Shown in pieces: positions 19,416-29,485 of a stretch of 64,000 nt of DNA; positions within the stretch are counted from its first letter, which is position 1; each line of letters opens with the position of its first letter. The stretch lies in sequence record OL739525.1; one strand, written 5' to 3'. This DNA is from Escherichia phage dw-ec. The notes beneath the pieces are model-generated. The model saw nothing but the letters and a program-made list of their open reading frames with translations. It did no database searches and had not been told where the DNA came from. A program made the translations under genes and the position numbers.

Positions 19416-20231
19416 TTATTTGTTTAAGTGGTCTTCGACCATTTTAATGAAACCTTCATTGCTGAAGGCTGTTGCAGCTTTTTCTCGGTAAACAAAAACT
19501 CCACGATCTTCATAGAGAAGTGTTTCTTCGTAATTAACTCCAGGGTTAACTACAACCATTTTTGTACCCATACTAAGTGCAGGAAATAATTCCCAATTAA
19601 AATTGATAACTTGGTTTGAACATCCTACTACTACAACCAAATCTTGCATGGTCAAAGTATCGAACAAGTGAGCCATATCTGCATACAAAGGTGCAGCCTC
19701 ACCAAAAAATACAACATTAGGCTTCACCCAGTTATAATCATCTATGTTTATACTATTGTAACCGATATCTACCAGTGTTTTGTAATCTCCAGGATGCATA
19801 CGGTAAACCACTTCAGGAAGATATCCGTGCACGTGAATAACAGAATCTCTGTCTACACCTGCTCGCTCTAGTAGATCATCAACGTTTGTTGTCAAGTTTA
19901 CTACTTGGTTAGGATATTCTTTAAACCATTTTGCTATTTGAATATGTGCAGCATTAGGCTGTACATCTTTAAGTTCAACACGTCTTTTGTTATAAAATTC
20001 GTGTGTTTTGGCATACAAATCCATGCCGTTCTCGTCTACACCACCGACCACTGGAAGATCTGGAGATGTTCTAACACGATAACCTGCTTGGAAAGCTCCA
20101 ATATCGCAGACCTCTTCTAAATCATATTCTTCCCATAAGGCACGACCACTGTCGGTGTCTGTTCGGAATGTTCTAATACCACTATCTGCACTTAAACCTG
20201 CACCGCTTACAAAAATCACTCGTCTTGGCAT
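19416..20231 (-). CDS. Sir2 (sirtuin) family NAD-binding protein
   Basis: motifs VIFVSGAGLSADSGIRTFR, LTTNVDDLLERAG, HVHG, VVFFGE, VVVGCS match the sirtuin Rossmann core. Confidence 0.6.
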   Translation of the reverse strand: MPRRVIFVSGAGLSADSGIRTFRTDTDSGRALWEEYDLEEVCDIGAFQAGYRVRTSPDLPVVGGVDENGMDLYAKTHEFYNKRRVELKDVQPNAAHIQIAKWFKEYPNQVVNLTTNVDDLLERAGVDRDSVIHVHGYLPEVVYRMHPGDYKTLVDIGYNSINIDDYNWVKPNVVFFGEAAPLYADMAHLFDTLTMQDLVVVVGCSNQVINFNWELFPALSMGTKMVVVNPGVNYEETLLYEDRGVFVYREKAATAFSNEGFIKMVEDHLNK

Positions 20232-20759: not shown

Positions 20760-21413
20760 CTATACCAGACTTTCAAGGTATTTGTCAAGGGCTTCTTGAT
20801 CACCTTGACAAACATAGCAACGGAAGTCTTGAGCCGAAGGTTGTTTATTTTCATCCCAGTCCCAATAAACATTACCCTTATAACGTGAACCAGGAAACTC
20901 AAAAGAGGCTGTATGTGTAATGTACCCTGGGCCACCAGTGAAATCACAGAATGAGAATTGGGGGTATGCCGCCTTTACTGCCTCAATAAACCAAGCTTTA
21001 CGATCTAAAGCTTCATTGATGCTATACGCATGTCTCTCCATTTCTTCCCACGTTTTCCAGACACTTCTCTCATCAGGAGAAAAGACAAGCCATTCTGGAA
21101 GGTATAGAGTGTCATAGTAATCATCATATTCGATCTCGGAGGCGCACGAAGCTGACTCCTCCAGTTTTGAGTAATCAAAAGCAGAATATACCCACCAACC
21201 ATCTTCCAGTAAGGCTTTGATAGGGACGAAGCCTTTATCAGCATATTGATCGAATTGTTTGACACGGTGGCTTGTGCAGTCTTCAAACTCACATTCTAAA
21301 CGATATGCACCTTTTCGACGAGCCTCAAGACCGTGTGTACTGAAAATAACAACACTTCCTTCACCATCATTACGATCTACTTGATAAGCAACCACTGGTT
21401 TTGAATTTGACAT
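20760..21413 (-). CDS. hypothetical protein
   Basis: ORF with RBS; 217 aa. Confidence 0.5.
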   Translation of the reverse strand: MSNSKPVVAYQVDRNDGEGSVVIFSTHGLEARRKGAYRLECEFEDCTSHRVKQFDQYADKGFVPIKALLEDGWWVYSAFDYSKLEESASCASEIEYDDYYDTLYLPEWLVFSPDERSVWKTWEEMERHAYSINEALDRKAWFIEAVKAAYPQFSFCDFTGGPGYITHTASFEFPGSRYKGNVYWDWDENKQPSAQDFRCYVCQGDQEALDKYLESLV

Positions 21414-22096
21414 TATTTCTCCTTATCTAGAAGATTGTTAGACAAAAACACTGCACGAGCAAAACCACGTGCGGTTAGTGATCTAAGTTGTTTTGTTTTT
21501 GCACTAGCTCCACCTAAGCTTTTCCAACCCCAGAAGCAGCCTATATGATCTACTGGTTTCTTCACTGGTTGAACAAAACCGTTGCCGTGCCAAATACAAG
21601 TTTTCTTTGTATACCCATCACGGGTAGGCATTTTAGGATGAAAGCTTCCTTCCTCTTCAAACAAATACCCACCATACTCATAAGGATCAAAGTAAAAATC
21701 GGGTTTACGCCATAAGGTTGAAAGTTTACCTACTGGGTTCTCAATCATCCAAGGAACATTATATTTGTTACCCAAAGCTTCCACTACACGAATATTAGCT
21801 AAAGCTTCATCCAATGCCTCTGTGCTGCGTTCGTGTTTGCTACCACTACCTGCTAACATAGTGCAAGGTGGAAATCCAAAAATAATATCGGGTTTAGGTA
21901 TCCCATGATCTTCAGGGTTGAATGTAGAATCTATCCAGGCATTCACATAGGTTATGTTTGGGTGCTCCATCCTAACCTCGTATTTACCGTGATCCCCTTC
22001 ATCAGCGTTTACACAAAAACATTTGTGACCTGCTTCGGCATAACGTAACACCATGATCCCAGATCCGTCAAACATAGACAAAACTGTTTTACTCAT
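21413..22096 (-). CDS. DNA (cytosine-5)-methyltransferase-like protein (short, catalytic core only)
   Basis: motif I-like SMFDGSG, motif IV GFPPCTMLAG (PC), motif VI IENPVG (ENV); start set at internal ATG with RBS ggagggg. Confidence 0.5.
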   Translation of the reverse strand: MSKTVLSMFDGSGIMVLRYAEAGHKCFCVNADEGDHGKYEVRMEHPNITYVNAWIDSTFNPEDHGIPKPDIIFGFPPCTMLAGSGSKHERSTEALDEALANIRVVEALGNKYNVPWMIENPVGKLSTLWRKPDFYFDPYEYGGYLFEEEGSFHPKMPTRDGYTKKTCIWHGNGFVQPVKKPVDHIGCFWGWKSLGGASAKTKQLRSLTARGFARAVFLSNNLLDKEK

Positions 22097-22502
22097 TACC
22101 CCTCCATTCAAGACAAGCCATAACTTTACGCCAATCACTTTCTGTAAGAAAAATCTCGTTTGCTTTCTTCCACAAATCTAAATCGTGAAGGGTTGGAATA
22201 CGATATGTTAGTTCACAGAATCTATGCTCTTCTTCTGTAATATAACCAAAATGCAGAGCCACATCGTGAAACCAACACCAACCATGCATCTCTCGAACAA
22301 CATGGTCATGTTGAGACATTATTTTATGCCGTAAACCTAACCAACAAGGAACAGATACTTTAGTAGTCTTTAATCTGTGATCAACAGTATTAGAGTATTC
22401 AATAATAGCTGTCAGTTTCAATCGTGCTTTTTCTAAATCCTCATGGGTCACTTTGAAATAACTTTCTGAAAGATATCCACACATATTAATAACCTCCTTC
22501 AA
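22089..22502 (-). CDS. hypothetical protein
   Basis: ORF in operon, 137 aa. Confidence 0.45.
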   Translation of the reverse strand: MKEVINMCGYLSESYFKVTHEDLEKARLKLTAIIEYSNTVDHRLKTTKVSVPCWLGLRHKIMSQHDHVVREMHGWCWFHDVALHFGYITEEEHRFCELTYRIPTLHDLDLWKKANEIFLTESDWRKVMACLEWRGNE

Positions 22503-23427
22503 AAGGCTTAACTACATGTTGATTAGCTTTAAAACGTTCAACATAGTCGTTTTCGCCCATGTTTTCATATAGCTTAGTAATAACATAAAAGTTTTCCCAA
22601 GCATATTCCCTAAACCAACCACTAGTGATGGATGTGCAGACTTTAGATAAAGCCATTATAAAACTTTGCTTAGGGGTTGGACCTCCGATCTCTTCACCGA
22701 AAGGAATTTGTGAACGTTCCAAAGCCAAAACACACGCTTCTTCATAAACACCTAACAGGCGCACATGTTTTGGTTGAGCAAAAAACTTTTCTTTGCTGGT
22801 CATAACTTCACTTCCATCTTTCATATAAGATTTATATGCTGGAGCATCCATTACCGCGATTGCTTCATGGATAGAATCATGATCATAAACATACGGAACC
22901 TCATCACCTTTAAAGAAGTCTTTACTTTTTACGTTTAAGTTCGGATGAGAGTAAGTGTATGTTTCTTTCTCACGCAACTCATAAATACTCTTAAGATTTT
23001 CTGGGATCTTTGCACCCAGTGACCGCATGAAATGAATATCTTTCATAGTTTTAAAGAAGTGAGGACTATCCTTTTTAAAACGATGACTCATTTTAAGAAG
23101 GTAGAGCACATCTAAAGGAGCAACAACATGTCCAGCGTAAGTTCGACGAACATCATCAGAATCTTCACAATAACTAATCAAAGCTTCTGTGCTATCTCCT
23201 TGAGAAGCAATATCGTATTCCAAATGTGCACCAGCTATCATTTTGACATGGCCTTTGTTTCCTTTACGTTCTACAAGTTCAACAAACTCATCTTGAGAGA
23301 ACATTTTTGATAATTCTTCCCACTCTTGTTCTGTACACAGGTAATCTAAATCTACACAAGGGCGATACAAGTCTTTTCCCATGTCCATAGTATGAATTTG
23401 TAATGCACGGCTACCAATTAACACCAT
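22486..23427 (-). CDS. hypothetical protein (possible Pol-beta-type nucleotidyltransferase motif)
   Basis: N-terminal LIGSRAL...DLDYL resembles the GS...DxD nucleotidyltransferase signature, but spacing is atypical. Confidence 0.4.
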   Translation of the reverse strand: MVLIGSRALQIHTMDMGKDLYRPCVDLDYLCTEQEWEELSKMFSQDEFVELVERKGNKGHVKMIAGAHLEYDIASQGDSTEALISYCEDSDDVRRTYAGHVVAPLDVLYLLKMSHRFKKDSPHFFKTMKDIHFMRSLGAKIPENLKSIYELREKETYTYSHPNLNVKSKDFFKGDEVPYVYDHDSIHEAIAVMDAPAYKSYMKDGSEVMTSKEKFFAQPKHVRLLGVYEEACVLALERSQIPFGEEIGGPTPKQSFIMALSKVCTSITSGWFREYAWENFYVITKLYENMGENDYVERFKANQHVVKPFEGGY

Positions 23428-23483: not shown

Positions 23484-23508
23484 CAATAAAAAACCCGCCG
23501 AAGCGGGT
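23484..23508 (-). terminator. intrinsic terminator (minus strand)
   Basis: hairpin acccgcttcggcgggt followed on the minus strand by TTTTTATT. Confidence 0.6.
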
Positions 23509-23517
23509 TATTATTTA

Positions 23518-23790
23518 CTAACACATTGAGGAAGAAGAGATCCAAACACCTCTTGTGGTTAAACCATTTTCATCCAACTCTACACCATAATCTTCACAAA
23601 TGAAATCAATATAGTGATCTGCGGCTGGCGTTCCTGTAGGGTAATAAGTTTCTCCGTTACCGTAGTCACCTATCCAAGCTTGTTCCTGAAACTGTTCACA
23701 AAGTTCTTCAATTTCCTTACGAAACTTTCTTTGTGCTTGTTCCATCTCTTTAACTTTCTTTTTTATCAGCAGTTCGCCTTCAGACTCCAC
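23518..23790 (-). CDS. hypothetical acidic protein
   Basis: ORF, 90 aa. Confidence 0.4.
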   Translation of the reverse strand: MESEGELLIKKKVKEMEQAQRKFRKEIEELCEQFQEQAWIGDYGNGETYYPTGTPAADHYIDFICEDYGVELDENGLTTRGVWISSSSMC

Positions 23791-23799
23791 AATCCCTCC

Positions 23800-24060
23800 T
23801 TAACAGCTACTACTGTGCCAAACGCCTTGAGAATTAACGACGAAACCATCATCACCTTCACCATAACAAGAAGAGGATTGCCAATCTTCAAAACAGATTG
23901 CGTCATTTTCTAAACTAAGACCAAAACCAGCATCTTCAGCTTCTTTTGTAAGTTCGTCCACTAAAGCCATAATAGCTTGGGCTTTTTCAGTTAATTCTTC
24001 AACATTACGATCACTCATTAGTATTTCTCCTCTGGTTGGAAAACTGAACGACAAGCCCAC
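23800..24060 (-). CDS. hypothetical acidic protein
   Basis: ORF, 86 aa. Confidence 0.4.
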   Translation of the reverse strand: MGLSFSFPTRGEILMSDRNVEELTEKAQAIMALVDELTKEAEDAGFGLSLENDAICFEDWQSSSCYGEGDDGFVVNSQGVWHSSSC

Positions 24061-24332
24061 ATACTAGCTTCTTTTAAATGTTTAATAGCACAACGGATTT
24101 GATCAATACGTTCGTATGCAAGATCTAATTCTTTTTCTGTGCCGTCAAAAGACCCATGATATGCTTCACAATACTCTTCCTCTAAAGCTTTGAAGATTAA
24201 ACCTAAACGCTCTTCTGCATCTTTAATAGCGTTAACCTTGCCAATCTTATCGTCAGTATGCGCCTTATAACCTTTGATATCTTCGATTCCCACTTTACCT
24301 CCTATTAACAACTTAAAGAAGATGGATGCCAA
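24018..24332 (-). CDS. hypothetical protein
   Basis: ORF; overlaps both neighbours so the start is uncertain. Confidence 0.3.
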   Translation of the reverse strand: MASIFFKLLIGGKVGIEDIKGYKAHTDDKIGKVNAIKDAEERLGLIFKALEEEYCEAYHGSFDGTEKELDLAYERIDQIRCAIKHLKEASMWACRSVFQPEEKY

Positions 24333-24502
24333 TTTGTTCCAGTGTTCTCATTTTCATCCTCTGGATCATAATAACCACCCATCCCATATTCAGGGGAGAA
24401 ACGGAAACCTTTACCAGTCTCATCTGCTAACTGCTCTGCTTCCGCTAAAGCCTCATAAGCTGCTTTTACAGCTTCTTCTACTGTTTTAAACTTGGTCGTC
24501 AT
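24305..24502 (-). CDS. hypothetical acidic protein
   Basis: ORF, 65 aa. Confidence 0.35.
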   Translation of the reverse strand: MTTKFKTVEEAVKAAYEALAEAEQLADETGKGFRFSPEYGMGGYYDPEDENENTGTNWHPSSLSC

Positions 24503-24776
24503 AAAATTTCTCCTCTCCTAAAGACATGTTGACATGAAATGCACGATATGTAAATTCATTGTCCGTTGTGTTTGAATAAAACTCAAATTGAACAACACCG
24601 TCTTGAGAAGACAGATACATGCCAATTTGAACTGTTCCTTCTGGTACCAGGTAAGCATACTCTGGACGTAGTGTTACATTGTAAAAATAAAGTTCCCCAA
24701 CACCCATTTCATCCCAAGCTTCCCAAGCGGTAACGAAGTTACTTTCAAAACTTGTTACTGATCCGAACTCTGCCAT
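24486..24776 (-). CDS. hypothetical protein
   Basis: ORF, 96 aa. Confidence 0.4.
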   Translation of the reverse strand: MAEFGSVTSFESNFVTAWEAWDEMGVGELYFYNVTLRPEYAYLVPEGTVQIGMYLSSQDGVVQFEFYSNTTDNEFTYRAFHVNMSLGEEKFYDDQV

Positions 24777-25267
24777 AAAACCTCCTCAATCTTGTAGTTT
24801 GACTCCATCTCCAACACATTTCCACGAACGTCTCTCCGAAGAAAGGCATAAGCTTTATTAGGTATTGTAGACTCATATTTAACCATATCTGGCACAGCAA
24901 AAGATACTACTACTCCTGCTGGGCTTCTGTCAAGAGCCTTATTAATATTTCTAAGAATATCGTTAGCCAAGATTTCTGCCAATTCTCCAAGAACAGTTTC
25001 GGTTATATCTTTATATCCCATTAAGTATTTGTTGATATCTTTCATCTCTGTATTGTTCAGAGTATAGTCCAAAGGATAGAAATTCAAAGCGGAGTCACTT
25101 TTATGTGTCCACATGAAATGCACCCGATCAGAGCAGAATCGTAACCCTCTATGAAGAATATCTTCTACAACAGGGAGAATTTCTTTTGTCACATCATTAA
25201 CCATGTTGTAATCTAAGATTTCTGCCAAGTTTGTTCTTTGTTCACCACGTTTACGTTTAGGAATCAC
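24755..25267 (-). CDS. hypothetical protein
   Basis: ORF, 170 aa. Confidence 0.45.
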   Translation of the reverse strand: MIPKRKRGEQRTNLAEILDYNMVNDVTKEILPVVEDILHRGLRFCSDRVHFMWTHKSDSALNFYPLDYTLNNTEMKDINKYLMGYKDITETVLGELAEILANDILRNINKALDRSPAGVVVSFAVPDMVKYESTIPNKAYAFLRRDVRGNVLEMESNYKIEEVLWQSSDQ

Positions 25268-25838
25268 TTGTTATTGCCCTCATTACCAAAGGTCGTAGAA
25301 AATCGTAAATCTCTTGTTTTGTTTTCCCACGAATGTTTAAACAAGGAACATTATTGGCTTTAGCTATCTTCCAAGCCGTAGCTGTTCCACCTTTTGCATC
25401 TCCATGTTTATCAGTATTAGCACAAGCCAACAAGAAACAGGATGGAGCAGGATTTTCCAAATCTCTACCTAACACTTGATGCACATTACGTTGGTGCAAT
25501 TTTCTAGCACCCTGCTTAAGCTTTTCATAAGCTGGGTGAACATCTTTGATCCATTGCACAGAGATAGCATAGTTCATTGTATCTGGTTTTGCAAGAACAA
25601 TAACATCCCCTGGAATCTGATTACCTTTGAAATTTTCCCAAGGAACATAGATCTCCTTGTTAGTAGGATTTTCAGACTCTTGGACACCTGTTTCAAAAGC
25701 AGAATCACTACCCTCTGCCTTCCCAGACCTTAATTTAAACCCAAGGTTTGAAAGCCATTTCCCTATGCCTACCATCAAAGCCCACTCTTCTTCGGATATG
25801 TCTCTACTTCCAACTCCCGTATAGAACAGTTCTGCCAT
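25257..25838 (-). CDS. DprA/Smf-like (SLOG-type Rossmann) protein
   Basis: FYTGVGSRDIS ... LRSGKAEGSDSAFETG resembles the DprA signature GSR ... SG.A.G.D; start at internal ATG with RBS gaggtgatt. Confidence 0.4.
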   Translation of the reverse strand: MAELFYTGVGSRDISEEEWALMVGIGKWLSNLGFKLRSGKAEGSDSAFETGVQESENPTNKEIYVPWENFKGNQIPGDVIVLAKPDTMNYAISVQWIKDVHPAYEKLKQGARKLHQRNVHQVLGRDLENPAPSCFLLACANTDKHGDAKGGTATAWKIAKANNVPCLNIRGKTKQEIYDFLRPLVMRAITSDS

Positions 25839-25845
25839 AATCACC

Positions 25846-26154
25846 TCAACAAGTAATTTCAAAAGGTGTATACGGTTCCGTATTTCTCATGATCCAAGGA
25901 CTGCTAGGATTGCTCGGATCATAAGGACCAAAAGGTTTTATGGTCGGTTGTGTTTCTTTCTTCTGAATCTCTTCAAAAATACGACGAAGTTCAGAATATT
26001 CTTGATCCACCATAAGATTCGGTGCATCTGATTCTACAGCTTGCAGGTTATCTTCCTTAAGAACAATCTCACGAACAAGATTAACATCTTCTGTTTCTAA
26101 GATAACTTCTTTACGGATATTACCTACACTTTGAATAATTGTAATCTTATACAT
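25846..26154 (-). CDS. hypothetical protein
   Basis: ORF, 102 aa. Confidence 0.45.
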   Translation of the reverse strand: MYKITIIQSVGNIRKEVILETEDVNLVREIVLKEDNLQAVESDAPNLMVDQEYSELRRIFEEIQKKETQPTIKPFGPYDPSNPSSPWIMRNTEPYTPFEITC

Positions 26155-26897
26155 TAATCCTCCTCAAGAGTTGAATAAAATTGAAGACCACCGTCCATAT
26201 CGAAATAAGCAAATGTTAAGTTATTATTGAACACAGATCCAGTATCCATATAAACACGATTCGCATTGATAATAGGTGTTTTTACATAAGAGTGTCCATG
26301 AAACACATAATCCACACCCATCACAACAGGAAGTTTCATTCCCTCTTTAGCACAGTCTACCATATCTCTGTCCCACATAAGTGCTTCAGCAAAACGGTTT
26401 TCCTGTGTTTTTGTCATCTTCGAAATGTATTCTGGAATATCTGTTACAGGGAGATATTCCAAAGAAGATGGATACCCACCATGAATAAACGCAAGTTTCA
26501 TGCCTCTGTAGTTAACAATGAGAACAACAGGTAAATCTTCTGTCATCATTGCTAAGGCTGTAGCTCCTTCTTCACCACATTCTTCAAAGACCGTATATCC
26601 TCCGTTTTGATACCAACACTCGTAGTAGCTACGATCTCCTTCCAGCATACCTTTAATCATCATGTCTTCATGATTGCCACGAATAGCGTAGCGATTGTGT
26701 TTACGAGTAAATTCTAAAACACAACGAAAGTTTTGCTTTCCACGGTCAGTAAGATCTCCTAGAGATACAACCACATCTGTATCTCGGATACCTAACTTTG
26801 CCTTTCCTTTTTCATACAAATTATAACAACCGTGTAGATCTCCAATTATAAAAAGATCTTGATCGTTTTTAACAGTAATTTCTTTGTGTATGATCAC
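26154..26897 (-). CDS. Ser/Thr protein phosphatase (metallophosphoesterase, lambda-PPase type)
   Basis: GDLHG, GDLTDRG, GNHE metallophosphatase motifs in order. Confidence 0.7.
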   Translation of the reverse strand: MIIHKEITVKNDQDLFIIGDLHGCYNLYEKGKAKLGIRDTDVVVSLGDLTDRGKQNFRCVLEFTRKHNRYAIRGNHEDMMIKGMLEGDRSYYECWYQNGGYTVFEECGEEGATALAMMTEDLPVVLIVNYRGMKLAFIHGGYPSSLEYLPVTDIPEYISKMTKTQENRFAEALMWDRDMVDCAKEGMKLPVVMGVDYVFHGHSYVKTPIINANRVYMDTGSVFNNNLTFAYFDMDGGLQFYSTLEED

Positions 26898-27233: not shown

Positions 27234-27824
27234 TCAAATTATTAACGAAACTGCATGACTAAATCTTGGTTCAGATATAACCTCTGCTACAGTCACATAT
27301 GTATCGTGCAGCCAAAAAGATTCTACTCTACAAACACAAATACCGTTGATAATGAAATCTACACAGGCTTTATTATTTTCGCACACTTGTTGACTATAAA
27401 CAACCCCTAAAGAGTCATAAAGTGATCTCACTGTTGCTACCATTTCATCTGTTTCGTCTTCCTGTGAAACAAAGAAAACGAATACAGACAAGTTATTAGC
27501 GAAAGTATTGCTATTCTCTACTTCAACCGACTTACAAGGTAAAAAGGAGTAATATTTACCGTTAGGTATCAATTTCGCCTCAACCTGGTTAAGTATGCTT
27601 TGAGATGGTTTTGTTACATAAAAAAGATTTTCTGTTGGGTTTTCAACATTACTCCTTACTATGCAACGAGTGGGGTTCGAAGGATCAAAAACATGATCGA
27701 AATCGACACACACAGGTAAGTTAACAACTTTAAACTTTTTGCTAAGAATGCTTACTGCTGTAAAAATCAAACCAGCATTTATTTTGCCAGTGAAAGTTGA
27801 ACGCATAACTACTCCTCGGATCAT
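27234..27824 (-). CDS. hypothetical protein
   Basis: ORF, 196 aa. Confidence 0.45.
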   Translation of the reverse strand: MIRGVVMRSTFTGKINAGLIFTAVSILSKKFKVVNLPVCVDFDHVFDPSNPTRCIVRSNVENPTENLFYVTKPSQSILNQVEAKLIPNGKYYSFLPCKSVEVENSNTFANNLSVFVFFVSQEDETDEMVATVRSLYDSLGVVYSQQVCENNKACVDFIINGICVCRVESFWLHDTYVTVAEVISEPRFSHAVSLII

Positions 27825-28512: not shown

Positions 28513-29022
28513 TTAAACAAAATAAAATGGTTGAGAGAGGCCCAAACGATTCTTTGGGTCGTATACATACCAAGCGTATGCTGTCTTATCTGTTCCACCT
28601 GCAACAAACGAAGGCCGTTCTGAAAGGACTATAAGGTTTGTTGGTGGATTCTTTTGATGGAACTCTCGTCGTTTCTTTGACTCCAAGAAGCCCAACCGAA
28701 GAAGATAAATACAAACATCCGCCTCTTTTAAGCTCTTTTCCAAGAACTCCATTGCTAACTTAAATGGAGGGTTTGTAATTATAATGTCGGGACGATTTTC
28801 CCATTCATGACTAAAATAATCTTTACCTTCTTCAAGTTCGCAATATTCTGAACCTTCAGGAAAATGGCGATAAATCGCTTCAGCTTCACCTCTGCAAGGT
28901 TCTGCAAAAACCCAACCTTCTTCCTTTAGATTTTTGAAATCTATAACACTAAACAAACTATTGATTGCTTTTTGCGGTGTCGGATAATAATCGCTCGTTG
29001 GGCGATCATAATCTAATGCCAT
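28513..29022 (-). CDS. DNA N6-adenine methyltransferase-like protein (small phage Dam-type)
   Basis: YYPTP N-terminal motif and catalytic IIITNPPF (NPPF). Confidence 0.55.
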   Translation of the reverse strand: MALDYDRPTSDYYPTPQKAINSLFSVIDFKNLKEEGWVFAEPCRGEAEAIYRHFPEGSEYCELEEGKDYFSHEWENRPDIIITNPPFKLAMEFLEKSLKEADVCIYLLRLGFLESKKRREFHQKNPPTNLIVLSERPSFVAGGTDKTAYAWYVYDPKNRLGLSQPFYFV

Positions 29023-29454: not shown

Positions 29455-29477
29455 GTTTAAGAAATGCCCCCGAAGGG
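29455..29477 (-). terminator. intrinsic terminator (minus strand)
   Basis: hairpin gcccc-ttcg-ggggc followed on the minus strand by a T-rich run. Confidence 0.5.
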
Positions 29478-29485
29478 GCAGTTTG

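Follow-up and report, generated by a model that had tools for sequence, protein, structure and literature searches.

A standalone SLOG-fold protein of Escherichia phage dw-ec represents a distinct DprA-related family with a possible role in NAD+-centred counter-defence

In a 64,000-nucleotide stretch of the genome of Escherichia phage dw-ec (sequence record OL739525.1), referred to below as the window, we examined a gene on the minus strand at 25257-25838 that encodes a free-standing SLOG-fold protein. Read directly, it is a genuine coding sequence of 193 amino acids, starting with an ATG at 25838 and closing with a stop codon that ends at 25257. The source genome is a Phapecoctavirus (phAPEC8/phi92-like E. 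coli myovirus), 99.5% identical to Mt1B1_P17 and WPEC6, and 100% identical SLOG proteins are already present in GenBank within public Phapecoctavirus genomes. The gene and its immediate surroundings comprise the following features:

25257..25838, minus strand: coding sequence of the standalone SLOG-fold protein, phrog_768, stop codon included
25841..25847, minus strand: Shine-Dalgarno sequence GAGGTGA, 2 nt before the SLOG ATG, read from the sequence
24755..25267, minus strand: downstream gene phrog_8569, 170 amino acids, no assigned function, its start overlapping the end of the SLOG coding sequence by 11 nt
25846..26154, minus strand: upstream gene phrog_15301, 102 amino acids, no assigned function
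26154..26897, minus strand: calcineurin-like (NinI-like) phosphoesterase, two genes upstream of the SLOG gene in the same predicted transcription unit (Pfam Metallophos 2.7e-13; phrog_246)

The strong Shine-Dalgarno sequence overlaps the stop codon with which the upstream gene ends (TGA, 25846-25848), and the downstream gene starts 11 nt ahead of the SLOG stop, indicating that the SLOG gene is predicted to be translationally coupled at both ends. For a wider comparison, 85 loci were assembled (80 IMG/VR contigs, 4 GenBank phages and the window), which form 41 lineages at 60% identity; across these lineages, the median gap between the SLOG gene and its flanking co-directional genes is -4 nt. 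A functional tie between the phosphoesterase at 26154-26897 and the SLOG gene is uncertain.

The protein is a full-length member of the family phrog_768 (E 2e-62, residues 2-182 on profile positions 2-180 of 191) and shows no sequence difference from the phrog_768 proteins YP_009987138.1 of Escherichia phage Mt1B1_P17 and Phi92_gp047. Membership in this family is the origin of the pipeline name 'DprA-like DNA recombination-mediator protein', and one record names a relative 'YspA'. Homologs were found in 1,442 of 50,697 phage records (~2.8%), comprising phages of Klebsiella, Pseudomonas, Escherichia, Aeromonas, Vibrio and Acinetobacter, N4-like roseophages and jumbo phages. Exhaustive profile searching recovered 5,985 clusters at the 50%-identity level; their representatives are almost all standalone proteins of 170-210 amino acids.

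An AlphaFold2 model built from 51 sequences (predicted local distance difference test (pLDDT) 95.5; predicted template-modelling score (pTM) 0.91) contains the Rossmannoid three-layer alpha/beta fold common to LOG, DprA, MoCo-carrier, YpsA and ThsA-SLOG proteins. Its top Foldseek match is H. pylori DprA (E 1.5e-5, template-modelling (TM) score ~0.54), no solved structure of any close relative was found with Foldseek, and PDB sequence searches, run from the protein alone and from the family profile, gave marginal DprA matches only. The Pfam model DNA_processg_A scored the query at 12.7 bits against a cut-off of 29.6, covering residues 9-52 only. When 51 family members were scanned, the Pfam DprA model was matched weakly in 46 (best E 2.6e-7) and 'SLOG cluster 4' in 12, and none of the 51 matched the YAcAr, YpsA or LOG models of Pfam; the NCBIfam LOG model was matched by one of the 51, and the NCBIfam dprA model (TIGR00732) gave no match to the query and weak matches in 13 members (best E 4e-4). 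HHalign against a DprA/ShosA profile of solved chains reached 82.5% probability over 46 N-terminal columns, from strand 1 through helix 1 and strand 2 to the GxD loop, and alignment of the C-terminal halves of the family and DprA alone reached ~1%. In the viral structure library BFVD, TM scores were 0.6-0.8 within the family and ~0.40-0.45 to the YAcAr/DUF2493 'YspA' SLOGs. The weak and partial DprA matches, the restriction of the HHalign similarity to the N-terminus and the structural separation from YAcAr proteins together establish the protein as a member of a distinct SLOG family, whose nearest relatives are of the DprA type, and not as a DprA orthologue. The public 'recombination mediator' label is probably wrong, and the RecA loading that the phrog_768 name implies is unsupported by the evidence gathered. 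A previous sequence-only reading of this DNA had described a DprA/Smf-like, SLOG-type Rossmann protein, which the alignments and structure matches bear out for fold and motifs; among the profiles it had proposed for comparison, DprA was matched over the 46 N-terminal columns, and LOG (NCBIfam) and ThsA-SLOG (STALD) were each matched in only one of 51 members.

Conservation was assessed over 144 representatives, one per 50%-identity cluster. G10, R12, R37, G39, D45, R117, N118, Q121, G124, G151 and T152 are conserved in all of them, and S11, S38, A41, G43, P66, W67, F70, H101, P102, H115 (98%), S133, G150, A155, A159 and N168 in at least 92%. The family motifs are GxGSR, LRSGxAxGxD, PW, HP, LHxRNxxQ and GGTxTA, of which GxGSR, LRSGxAxGxD and GGTxTA are the three canonical SLOG ligand loops in their DprA flavour, invariant or nearly so. 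The ligand loops and the conserved helix lie at these positions:

25803..25817, minus strand: loop after strand 1, G8-V-G10-S11-R12, with G10 and R12 invariant (alignments, HHalign)
25704..25730, minus strand: loop after strand 2, R37-S-G39-K-A41-E-G43-S-D45, counterpart of DprA SGxAxGxD (alignments, HHalign)
25476..25499, minus strand: helix motif L114-H115-Q-R117-N118-V-H-Q121 (conservation)
25374..25391, minus strand: glycine-rich loop G150-G151-T152-A-T154-A155, counterpart of DprA SGSxxTA and LOG PGGxGTxxE

H. pylori DprA contacts single-stranded DNA (ssDNA) through R52, R143 and R170 (PMC12961424). By alignment and residue mapping, R12 pairs with the arginine of the DprA 'GSR' motif, that is, with the ssDNA/phosphate contact R52. 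In DprA, R143 opens the RNR motif of the 'F-x-R-R-N-R' helix according to numbered alignments, and the LHxRNxxQ helix may be the counterpart of that helix; an equivalence of R117-N118 with the RNR motif is not claimed here, since the pairing appears only in the greedy HHalign of the C-terminal halves, at ~1% probability. The position of R170 is occupied by K157 and is not conserved, being Asn or Val in most members, and R37 is peculiar to the phrog_768 family. K157 likewise stands at the position of the LOG catalytic Glu, where most members carry Asn, so that a LOG-type catalytic apparatus is missing. Isoelectric point (pI) and net charge were uninformative as discriminators of DNA binding (family median pI 8.0; DprA domains 5.8 to 9.2). 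The invariance of so many polar residues across the 144 representatives is more typical of active sites than of passive binders.

Compared with bacterial DprA/Smf proteins (PF02481; structures 4LJK/4LJR, 3UQZ and 3MAJ) and the DprA-like antitoxin ShosA (8ZVA), the query falls below the Pfam and TIGRFAM cut-offs, aligns confidently over only ~46 N-terminal residues, and has neither SAM nor winged-helix domains nor a recognisable C-terminal dimerisation/RecA-binding segment, its model ending in a single helix (residues 174-191). It carries in addition the extra invariant R37, W67 and H115/Q121, and its family occurs with NADAR and DUF4326 fusions instead of a recombination-gene context. The LOG motifs GGGxxGLM and PGGxGTxxE (PF03641) are replaced by RSGxAxGxD and KGGTATAxK/N in the query family. 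The SLOG domain of ThsA from type I Thoeris (7UXS), a sensor of cyclic ADP-ribose (cADPR), is the most distant among the matched SLOG structures; unlike ThsA, the phage protein is not fused to a Sir2 effector, and Pfam STALD (PF18185) was matched in one of 51 members at E 0.27.

Ten of the 150 best-scoring representatives are multidomain proteins, with NADAR in four and DUF4326 in one. Two of these are giant proteins (~1,480 amino acids) that combine the phrog_768 SLOG with YAcAr, a cluster-4 SLOG and a C-terminal NADAR. The 1,488-amino-acid protein with three SLOG domains and NADAR, encoded at 6001-10467 of contig L092 (ENA ERZ26167216, 94.6 kb), is flanked by ArdC-N/MPTase-PolyVal, two copies of RadC, DUF2958 and a 1,445-amino-acid AAA_34 helicase, which identify this as a predicted polyvalent-protein locus of a mobile element. 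Further fusion partners are phrog_2072 ('N4 gp14-like') and phrog_9995, neither of which has a Pfam or PDB match. The former lies at the C-termini of P0119 and P0218, carries the motifs FVFGSNxxGxHGAGAA and GCGLAG, and is also a separate SLOG-neighbour gene in four lineages (L006 1968-2357, L083, L074 and L076). For phrog_2072, HHalign to the Macro cluster reached only 14%, and the AlphaFold2 model of P0119 has pLDDT <50 in that domain.

Recurrent neighbours, taken as genes lying no more than 5 kb from SLOG, were tallied by lineage. No neighbour is universal, and the counts are:

PhoH: 8/41 lineages
Ribonucleotide reductase (RNR): 7/41 lineages
Macro: 6/41 lineages
NAPRTase-family (Namat-like): 5/41 lineages
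Phosphoribosyl pyrophosphate (PRPP)-synthetase-like (Prs-like, Adps-like): 5/41 lineages
Calcineurin-like phosphoesterase, window included: 5/41 lineages
ThyX: 5/41 lineages
DUF4326: 2/41 lineages
NADAR: 1/41 lineages
Sir2, window lineage only: 1/41 lineages

The Prs-like and NAPRTase-like pair is the NAD+ reconstitution pathway NARP1, made up of Adps and Namat (10.1101/2024.02.11.579819), and the Macro neighbour corresponds to Adpp, an ADP-ribose-1''-phosphate phosphatase accessory to NARP1 (10.64898/2026.01.28.702374). At least one NARP1, Macro, DUF4326 or NADAR gene is found within 5 kb of SLOG in 10 of the 41 lineages. The array Adps-Namat-x-Macro-x-SLOG is kept between lineages at 40-55% protein identity and can be seen in the annotated Pakpunavirus CAb02 (ORF24, ORF22, ORF20 and ORF17), and the rearranged arrays SLOG-Adps-Namat-x-DUF4326 and Namat-x-SLOG also exist. 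Adps-like genes occur in 2.9% of phage records; within a 10-kb span, Adps lies near the SLOG gene in 5/41 lineages against a naive expectation of ~0.1, an excess inflated by the clustering of auxiliary metabolic genes. In Felixounavirus AYO145A (L095, 19959-22669), the Adps-Namat pair is present with no SLOG gene within 20 kb, showing that SLOG is an optional, not an obligate, companion of NARP1. The 85 loci contain no RecA-like, ssDNA-binding-protein (SSB)-like or recombination-exonuclease-like neighbours; in Nankokuvirus, a ligase gene and a helicase gene lie close to SLOG.

Outside the window, the ADP-ribose (ADPR)-related genes of this phage were traced in the 99.5% identical reference genome (L088, NC_052662.1):

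L088 13858-14391: gp037, NADAR (Pfam 1.3e-35), annotated 'GTP cyclohydrolase II'
L088 25431-25799: gp067, DUF4326 (1.1e-21), annotated 'ribonucleotide reductase NrdA-like'
L088 35133-35606: gp081, annotated hypothetical, Adpp-like Macro protein

These three genes and Sir2 encode domains that are fused to or neighbour phrog_768 elsewhere, and the phage thus has a dispersed set of ADPR-processing genes under wrong or empty names. NARP1 is not present in this phage. A search of the reference genome for RecA homologs found none; like the survey of SLOG neighbours, it had limited sensitivity for distant UvsX-type recombinases.

In the window, the SLOG gene belongs to an extended leftward series of small genes of the early or middle class, and terminator-like sites are enriched (17 found versus 7.4 +/- 2.6 expected). 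The sites that delimit the SLOG gene and the Sir2-family gene downstream of it are:

29465..29480, minus strand: upstream terminator-like hairpin, marking the probable start of the SLOG unit
23492..23509, minus strand: terminator-like hairpin with T-tract, probable end of the SLOG transcription unit
23486-23458, minus strand: promoter-like site after the hairpin at 23492-23509
20788-20759, minus strand: promoter-like site of the Sir2 gene itself
20744-20720, minus strand: second terminator-like hairpin between the SLOG unit and Sir2, which also flanks Sir2
19416-20231, minus strand: Sir2-family protein gene (Pfam SIR2 1.3e-22)
19408-19391, minus strand: terminator-like hairpin on the other flank of Sir2

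The SLOG unit probably spans ~29440 down to 23518 and also holds a small DNA methyltransferase gene, the phosphoesterase gene and many unknown genes. Sir2 lies ~5 kb and ~12 genes downstream of the SLOG gene, and the two are separated by the hairpins 23509-23492 and 20744-20720, each beside a good sigma-70-like promoter. Moreover, the lineage of the window is the only one in which Sir2 is found within 5 kb of SLOG, and in some of its members Sir2 is on the opposite strand. The sequence-only reading had placed the SLOG gene in the same operon as a Sir2-like gene; with two hairpin and promoter sites parting the SLOG unit from Sir2, this argument fails, and Sir2 as a conserved SLOG associate was also rejected, given the intervening sites and a proximity confined to one lineage.

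Several other genes of this region deserve mention. The first gene of the transcription unit lying between the SLOG and Sir2 units (22486-23427, minus strand) encodes a 313-amino-acid protein with DUF7277 (E 1e-13) and DUF7275 (2e-75) and no assigned function. Two small orphan DNA methyltransferase-like genes in the early-gene array (21413-22138 and 28513-29022, both minus strand), namely phrog_757 and an N6-methyltransferase-like protein with an NPPF motif, probably serve anti-restriction self-methylation. Downstream of the SLOG gene, three tandem small acidic open reading frames (23518-23790, 23800-24060 and 24305-24502, all minus strand) share a C-terminal W-[HI]-x-SS-x-C motif (GVWISSSSMC, GVWHSSSC, TNWHPSSLSC); their pairwise BLAST matches are marginal (E 0.04-0.08), and they may form a divergent paralog family. 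The 196-amino-acid phrog_4806 product of 27234-27824 (minus strand) is publicly labelled 'histidyl tRNA synthetase', has zero Pfam matches, and its label is probably a propagated misannotation.

Taken together, the fusions, the repeated NARP1/Adpp/DUF4326 surroundings, the polyvalent-protein locus and the invariant polar pocket lead us to infer tentatively that the SLOG protein may catalytically process an NAD+/ADPR-derived immune molecule as part of phage counter-defence. In this proposal, a canonical SLOG pocket lined by the invariant R12, R37 and R117 together with D45, H115, N118, Q121 and T152 would bind the phosphate-ribose part of an NAD+/ADPR-derived molecule made by host TIR, Sir2 or RES-type immune enzymes. 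Processing would most likely be hydrolytic, for example by ribosyl glycosidic cleavage, as in catalytic members of the TIR/DrHyd/SLOG class. The protein would act beside other ADPR handlers, namely the NADAR, Macro and DUF4326 proteins of this phage and, in other phages, the NAD+-reconstituting NARP1 enzymes, and NAD+-centred defence would thereby be blunted early in infection. The earlier idea of a nucleotide-derived immune ligand thus gains the NADAR/DUF4326 fusions, the neighbours in 10 of 41 lineages and the polyvalent locus, and loses the Sir2-operon argument.

A more specific form of this proposal, which we regard as doubtful, is that phrog_768 constitutes a hitherto unrecognised enzymatic class of counter-defence proteins, DprA-derived SLOG hydrolases that would turn a non-canonical NAD+-derived immune product into ADPR and so disarm the signal or toxin, with a cADPR isomer, His-ADPR or base-linked ADPR as candidate substrates. 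Two NARP1-locus accessories, Adpp and the cADPR glycosidase RyDEP, convert defence-derived NAD+ products to ADPR (10.64898/2026.01.28.702374; 10.64898/2026.05.28.727677). Like them, the SLOG protein is in several lineages encoded by a small phage gene in or beside Adps-Namat operons, two genes after Adpp; unlike them, it has an unrelated fold and an activity that is only predicted, and the Phapecoctavirus studied here is devoid of NARP1. If the hydrolase reading is true, the ADPR product would feed NAD+ reconstitution in NARP1 phages, and the protein would join Adpp and RyDEP as a third accessory of NARP1.

Several observations weigh against the processing of an NAD+/ADPR-derived molecule. The LOG catalytic Glu is replaced by K157 or Asn, and the closest relatives by both sequence and Foldseek, DprA and ShosA, are non-catalytic ssDNA binders. 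The published prediction stressed YAcAr/YpsA-like viral SLOGs, from which the family is separate. In this phage, the immediate SLOG neighbours are unknowns and the phosphoesterase, and none adjacent is an NAD+/ADPR gene; an NAD+/ADPR gene within 5 kb is likewise absent in 31 of the 41 lineages. Since PhoH, RNR and ThyX are equally frequent, the NAD+/ADPR signal may partly reflect a general 'auxiliary metabolism' region. Among papers on Thoeris sponges, NARP1, aRES, RyDEP and Migulavirinae, none reporting experiments on phrog_768 proteins was found.

The protein could, alternatively, be a DprA-like protein that binds ssDNA and serves as a recombination mediator or accessory SSB on phage replication or recombination intermediates, which is what the public annotation conveys; Iyer et al. 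(2021, PMC7824862) took jumbo-phage DprA/Smf copies to be possible additional ssDNA binders. DNA_processg_A gives weak Pfam matches in more of the family than any other model, HHalign matches the first 46 columns, Foldseek ranks H. pylori DprA first, R12 matches the ssDNA-contact R52, R117 may match R143, and a ligase and a helicase accompany the gene in Nankokuvirus. These similarities are opposed by the sub-threshold Pfam score and the missing TIGR00732 match, by a C-terminal half, the site of dimerisation and RecA binding in DprA, that does not align and ends in one helix, by a third ssDNA residue (R170) that is not conserved, by the lack of RecA-, SSB- and exonuclease-like neighbours in the 85 loci and of a detectable RecA homolog in the reference genome, and by fusion partners that are NADAR and DUF4326, not DNA-metabolism domains. 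Resting on motif similarity and lacking contextual support, a DprA-like ssDNA function seems unlikely. Arginines of the ssDNA-contact type seen in DprA could be reconciled with the NADAR fusions if the protein were a reader or eraser of ADP-ribosylated DNA, binding ssDNA that bears base-linked ADPR of the DarT type and either guiding NADAR/Macro hydrolases to it or itself cleaving the base-ribose N-glycosidic bond. The phage encodes a NADAR, LOG-type SLOGs cleave base-ribose-5'-phosphate N-glycosidic bonds (PMC9503650), and NADARs are reported to reverse guanine ADP-ribosylation, with phage NADARs neutralising DarTG1 (PMC11125620, PMC11257639). This scenario is purely inferential: NADAR is a neighbour in a single lineage, the NARP1 and Adpp adjacency indicates soluble ADPR derivatives, and SLOG/DprA proteins are unmentioned in the DarT-related literature; we consider it quite improbable.

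Sequestration without turnover, in which the pocket would act as a non-catalytic sponge or sensor for a cADPR-type or other ADPR-derived immune signal, an option raised by the sequence-only reading, seems rather unlikely: the eight Thoeris/CBASS sponge families defined by experiment (Tad1, Tad2, Acb2, Acb4, Sequestin, Lockin, TadIV-1 and RyR-Tad) all have folds other than SLOG, and the invariant His, Asp, Asn and Gln over ~6,000 clusters and the fusions to NADAR and DUF4326 enzymes would better suit processing. A role outside immunity, as a LOG/PpnN-like N-glycosidase or related enzyme remodelling nucleoside monophosphate ((d)NMP) pools for phage DNA synthesis, is improbable in view of the replacement of the LOG motifs GGGxxGLM and PGGxGTxxE with their catalytic Glu, the absence of Pfam LOG matches, the single NCBIfam LOG match among 51 members, and ADPR-processing domains as fusion partners. 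Least probable by far is an antitoxin mimic, a DprA-like ShosA/PsyrA homolog neutralising the phosphoribosyltransferase toxins of ShosTA/PsyrTA defence. Weak PADLOC matches are seen in 31 of 51 members, but the window protein has none at E <= 0.01, it lacks the SAM domain and the C-terminal part of ShosA, and no toxin neighbour is present in the window; ShosA requires dimerisation, ssDNA binding and RecA binding (PMC12961424), all of which are unsupported for the SLOG protein.

The favoured reading, processing of an NAD+/ADPR-derived immune molecule, agrees with published views on viral SLOGs in general. Iyer et al. (2022, PMC9503650) surveyed viral NAD+/ADPR systems, reported SLOG domains, mostly free-standing but also fused to Macro, NADAR and DUF4326, in 7% of small, 19% of medium and 31% of jumbo phages, and proposed a role in sensing or degrading cADPR-type signals, stating that these proteins were experimentally uncharacterised. 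The protein studied here is likewise a standalone phage SLOG, its family shows NADAR, Macro and DUF4326 as fusions or neighbours and in the same genome, and the predicted role is the same; however, the viral SLOGs of that study are mainly YpsA-like (YAcAr/DUF2493; PF06908, PF10686), whereas phrog_768 is closer to DprA. A second comparison is offered by ORF83, a Smf/DprA-annotated SLOG that was experimentally identified as a factor against type III Avs (Avs3) (Gao et al. 2022; analysed in the EVADES preprint, 10.1101/2025.06.06.658234). It has structural matches to LOG and DprA, its predicted ligand contacts are an R-N pair and a loop Thr, the residues that serve dimerisation and RecA in DprA are missing, and it has homologs that carry a DUF4326 fusion. 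The phage SLOG fold, the R-N pair, the loop Thr and the DUF4326 fusions are shared with the protein studied here, but the spacing from RN to Thr, compared by description only, is 23 residues in ORF83 and 35 here. Given its tighter spacing, ORF83 is probably a more compact sister family of phrog_768.

The immune-ligand idea is already in print (PMC9503650, sections 3.4.4 and 3.7.4), and the gene and its family are already catalogued. Our analysis adds the doubt about the label, the separation of the family from YAcAr-type viral SLOGs and its recurrent placement by NARP1-Adpp. Nearly every copy of the family is named a recombination mediator, a label that the evidence presented here does not support. 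The adjacency to NARP1-Adpp provides a concrete candidate for a further accessory step in the NAD+-centred counter-defence of phages. If the favoured reading is true, the family would represent a widespread new fold directed against Thoeris-, Sir2- and RES-type NAD+-centred immunity, and would account for an unassigned gene in the extended NARP1 loci that therapeutic phages of Pseudomonas and E. coli carry.

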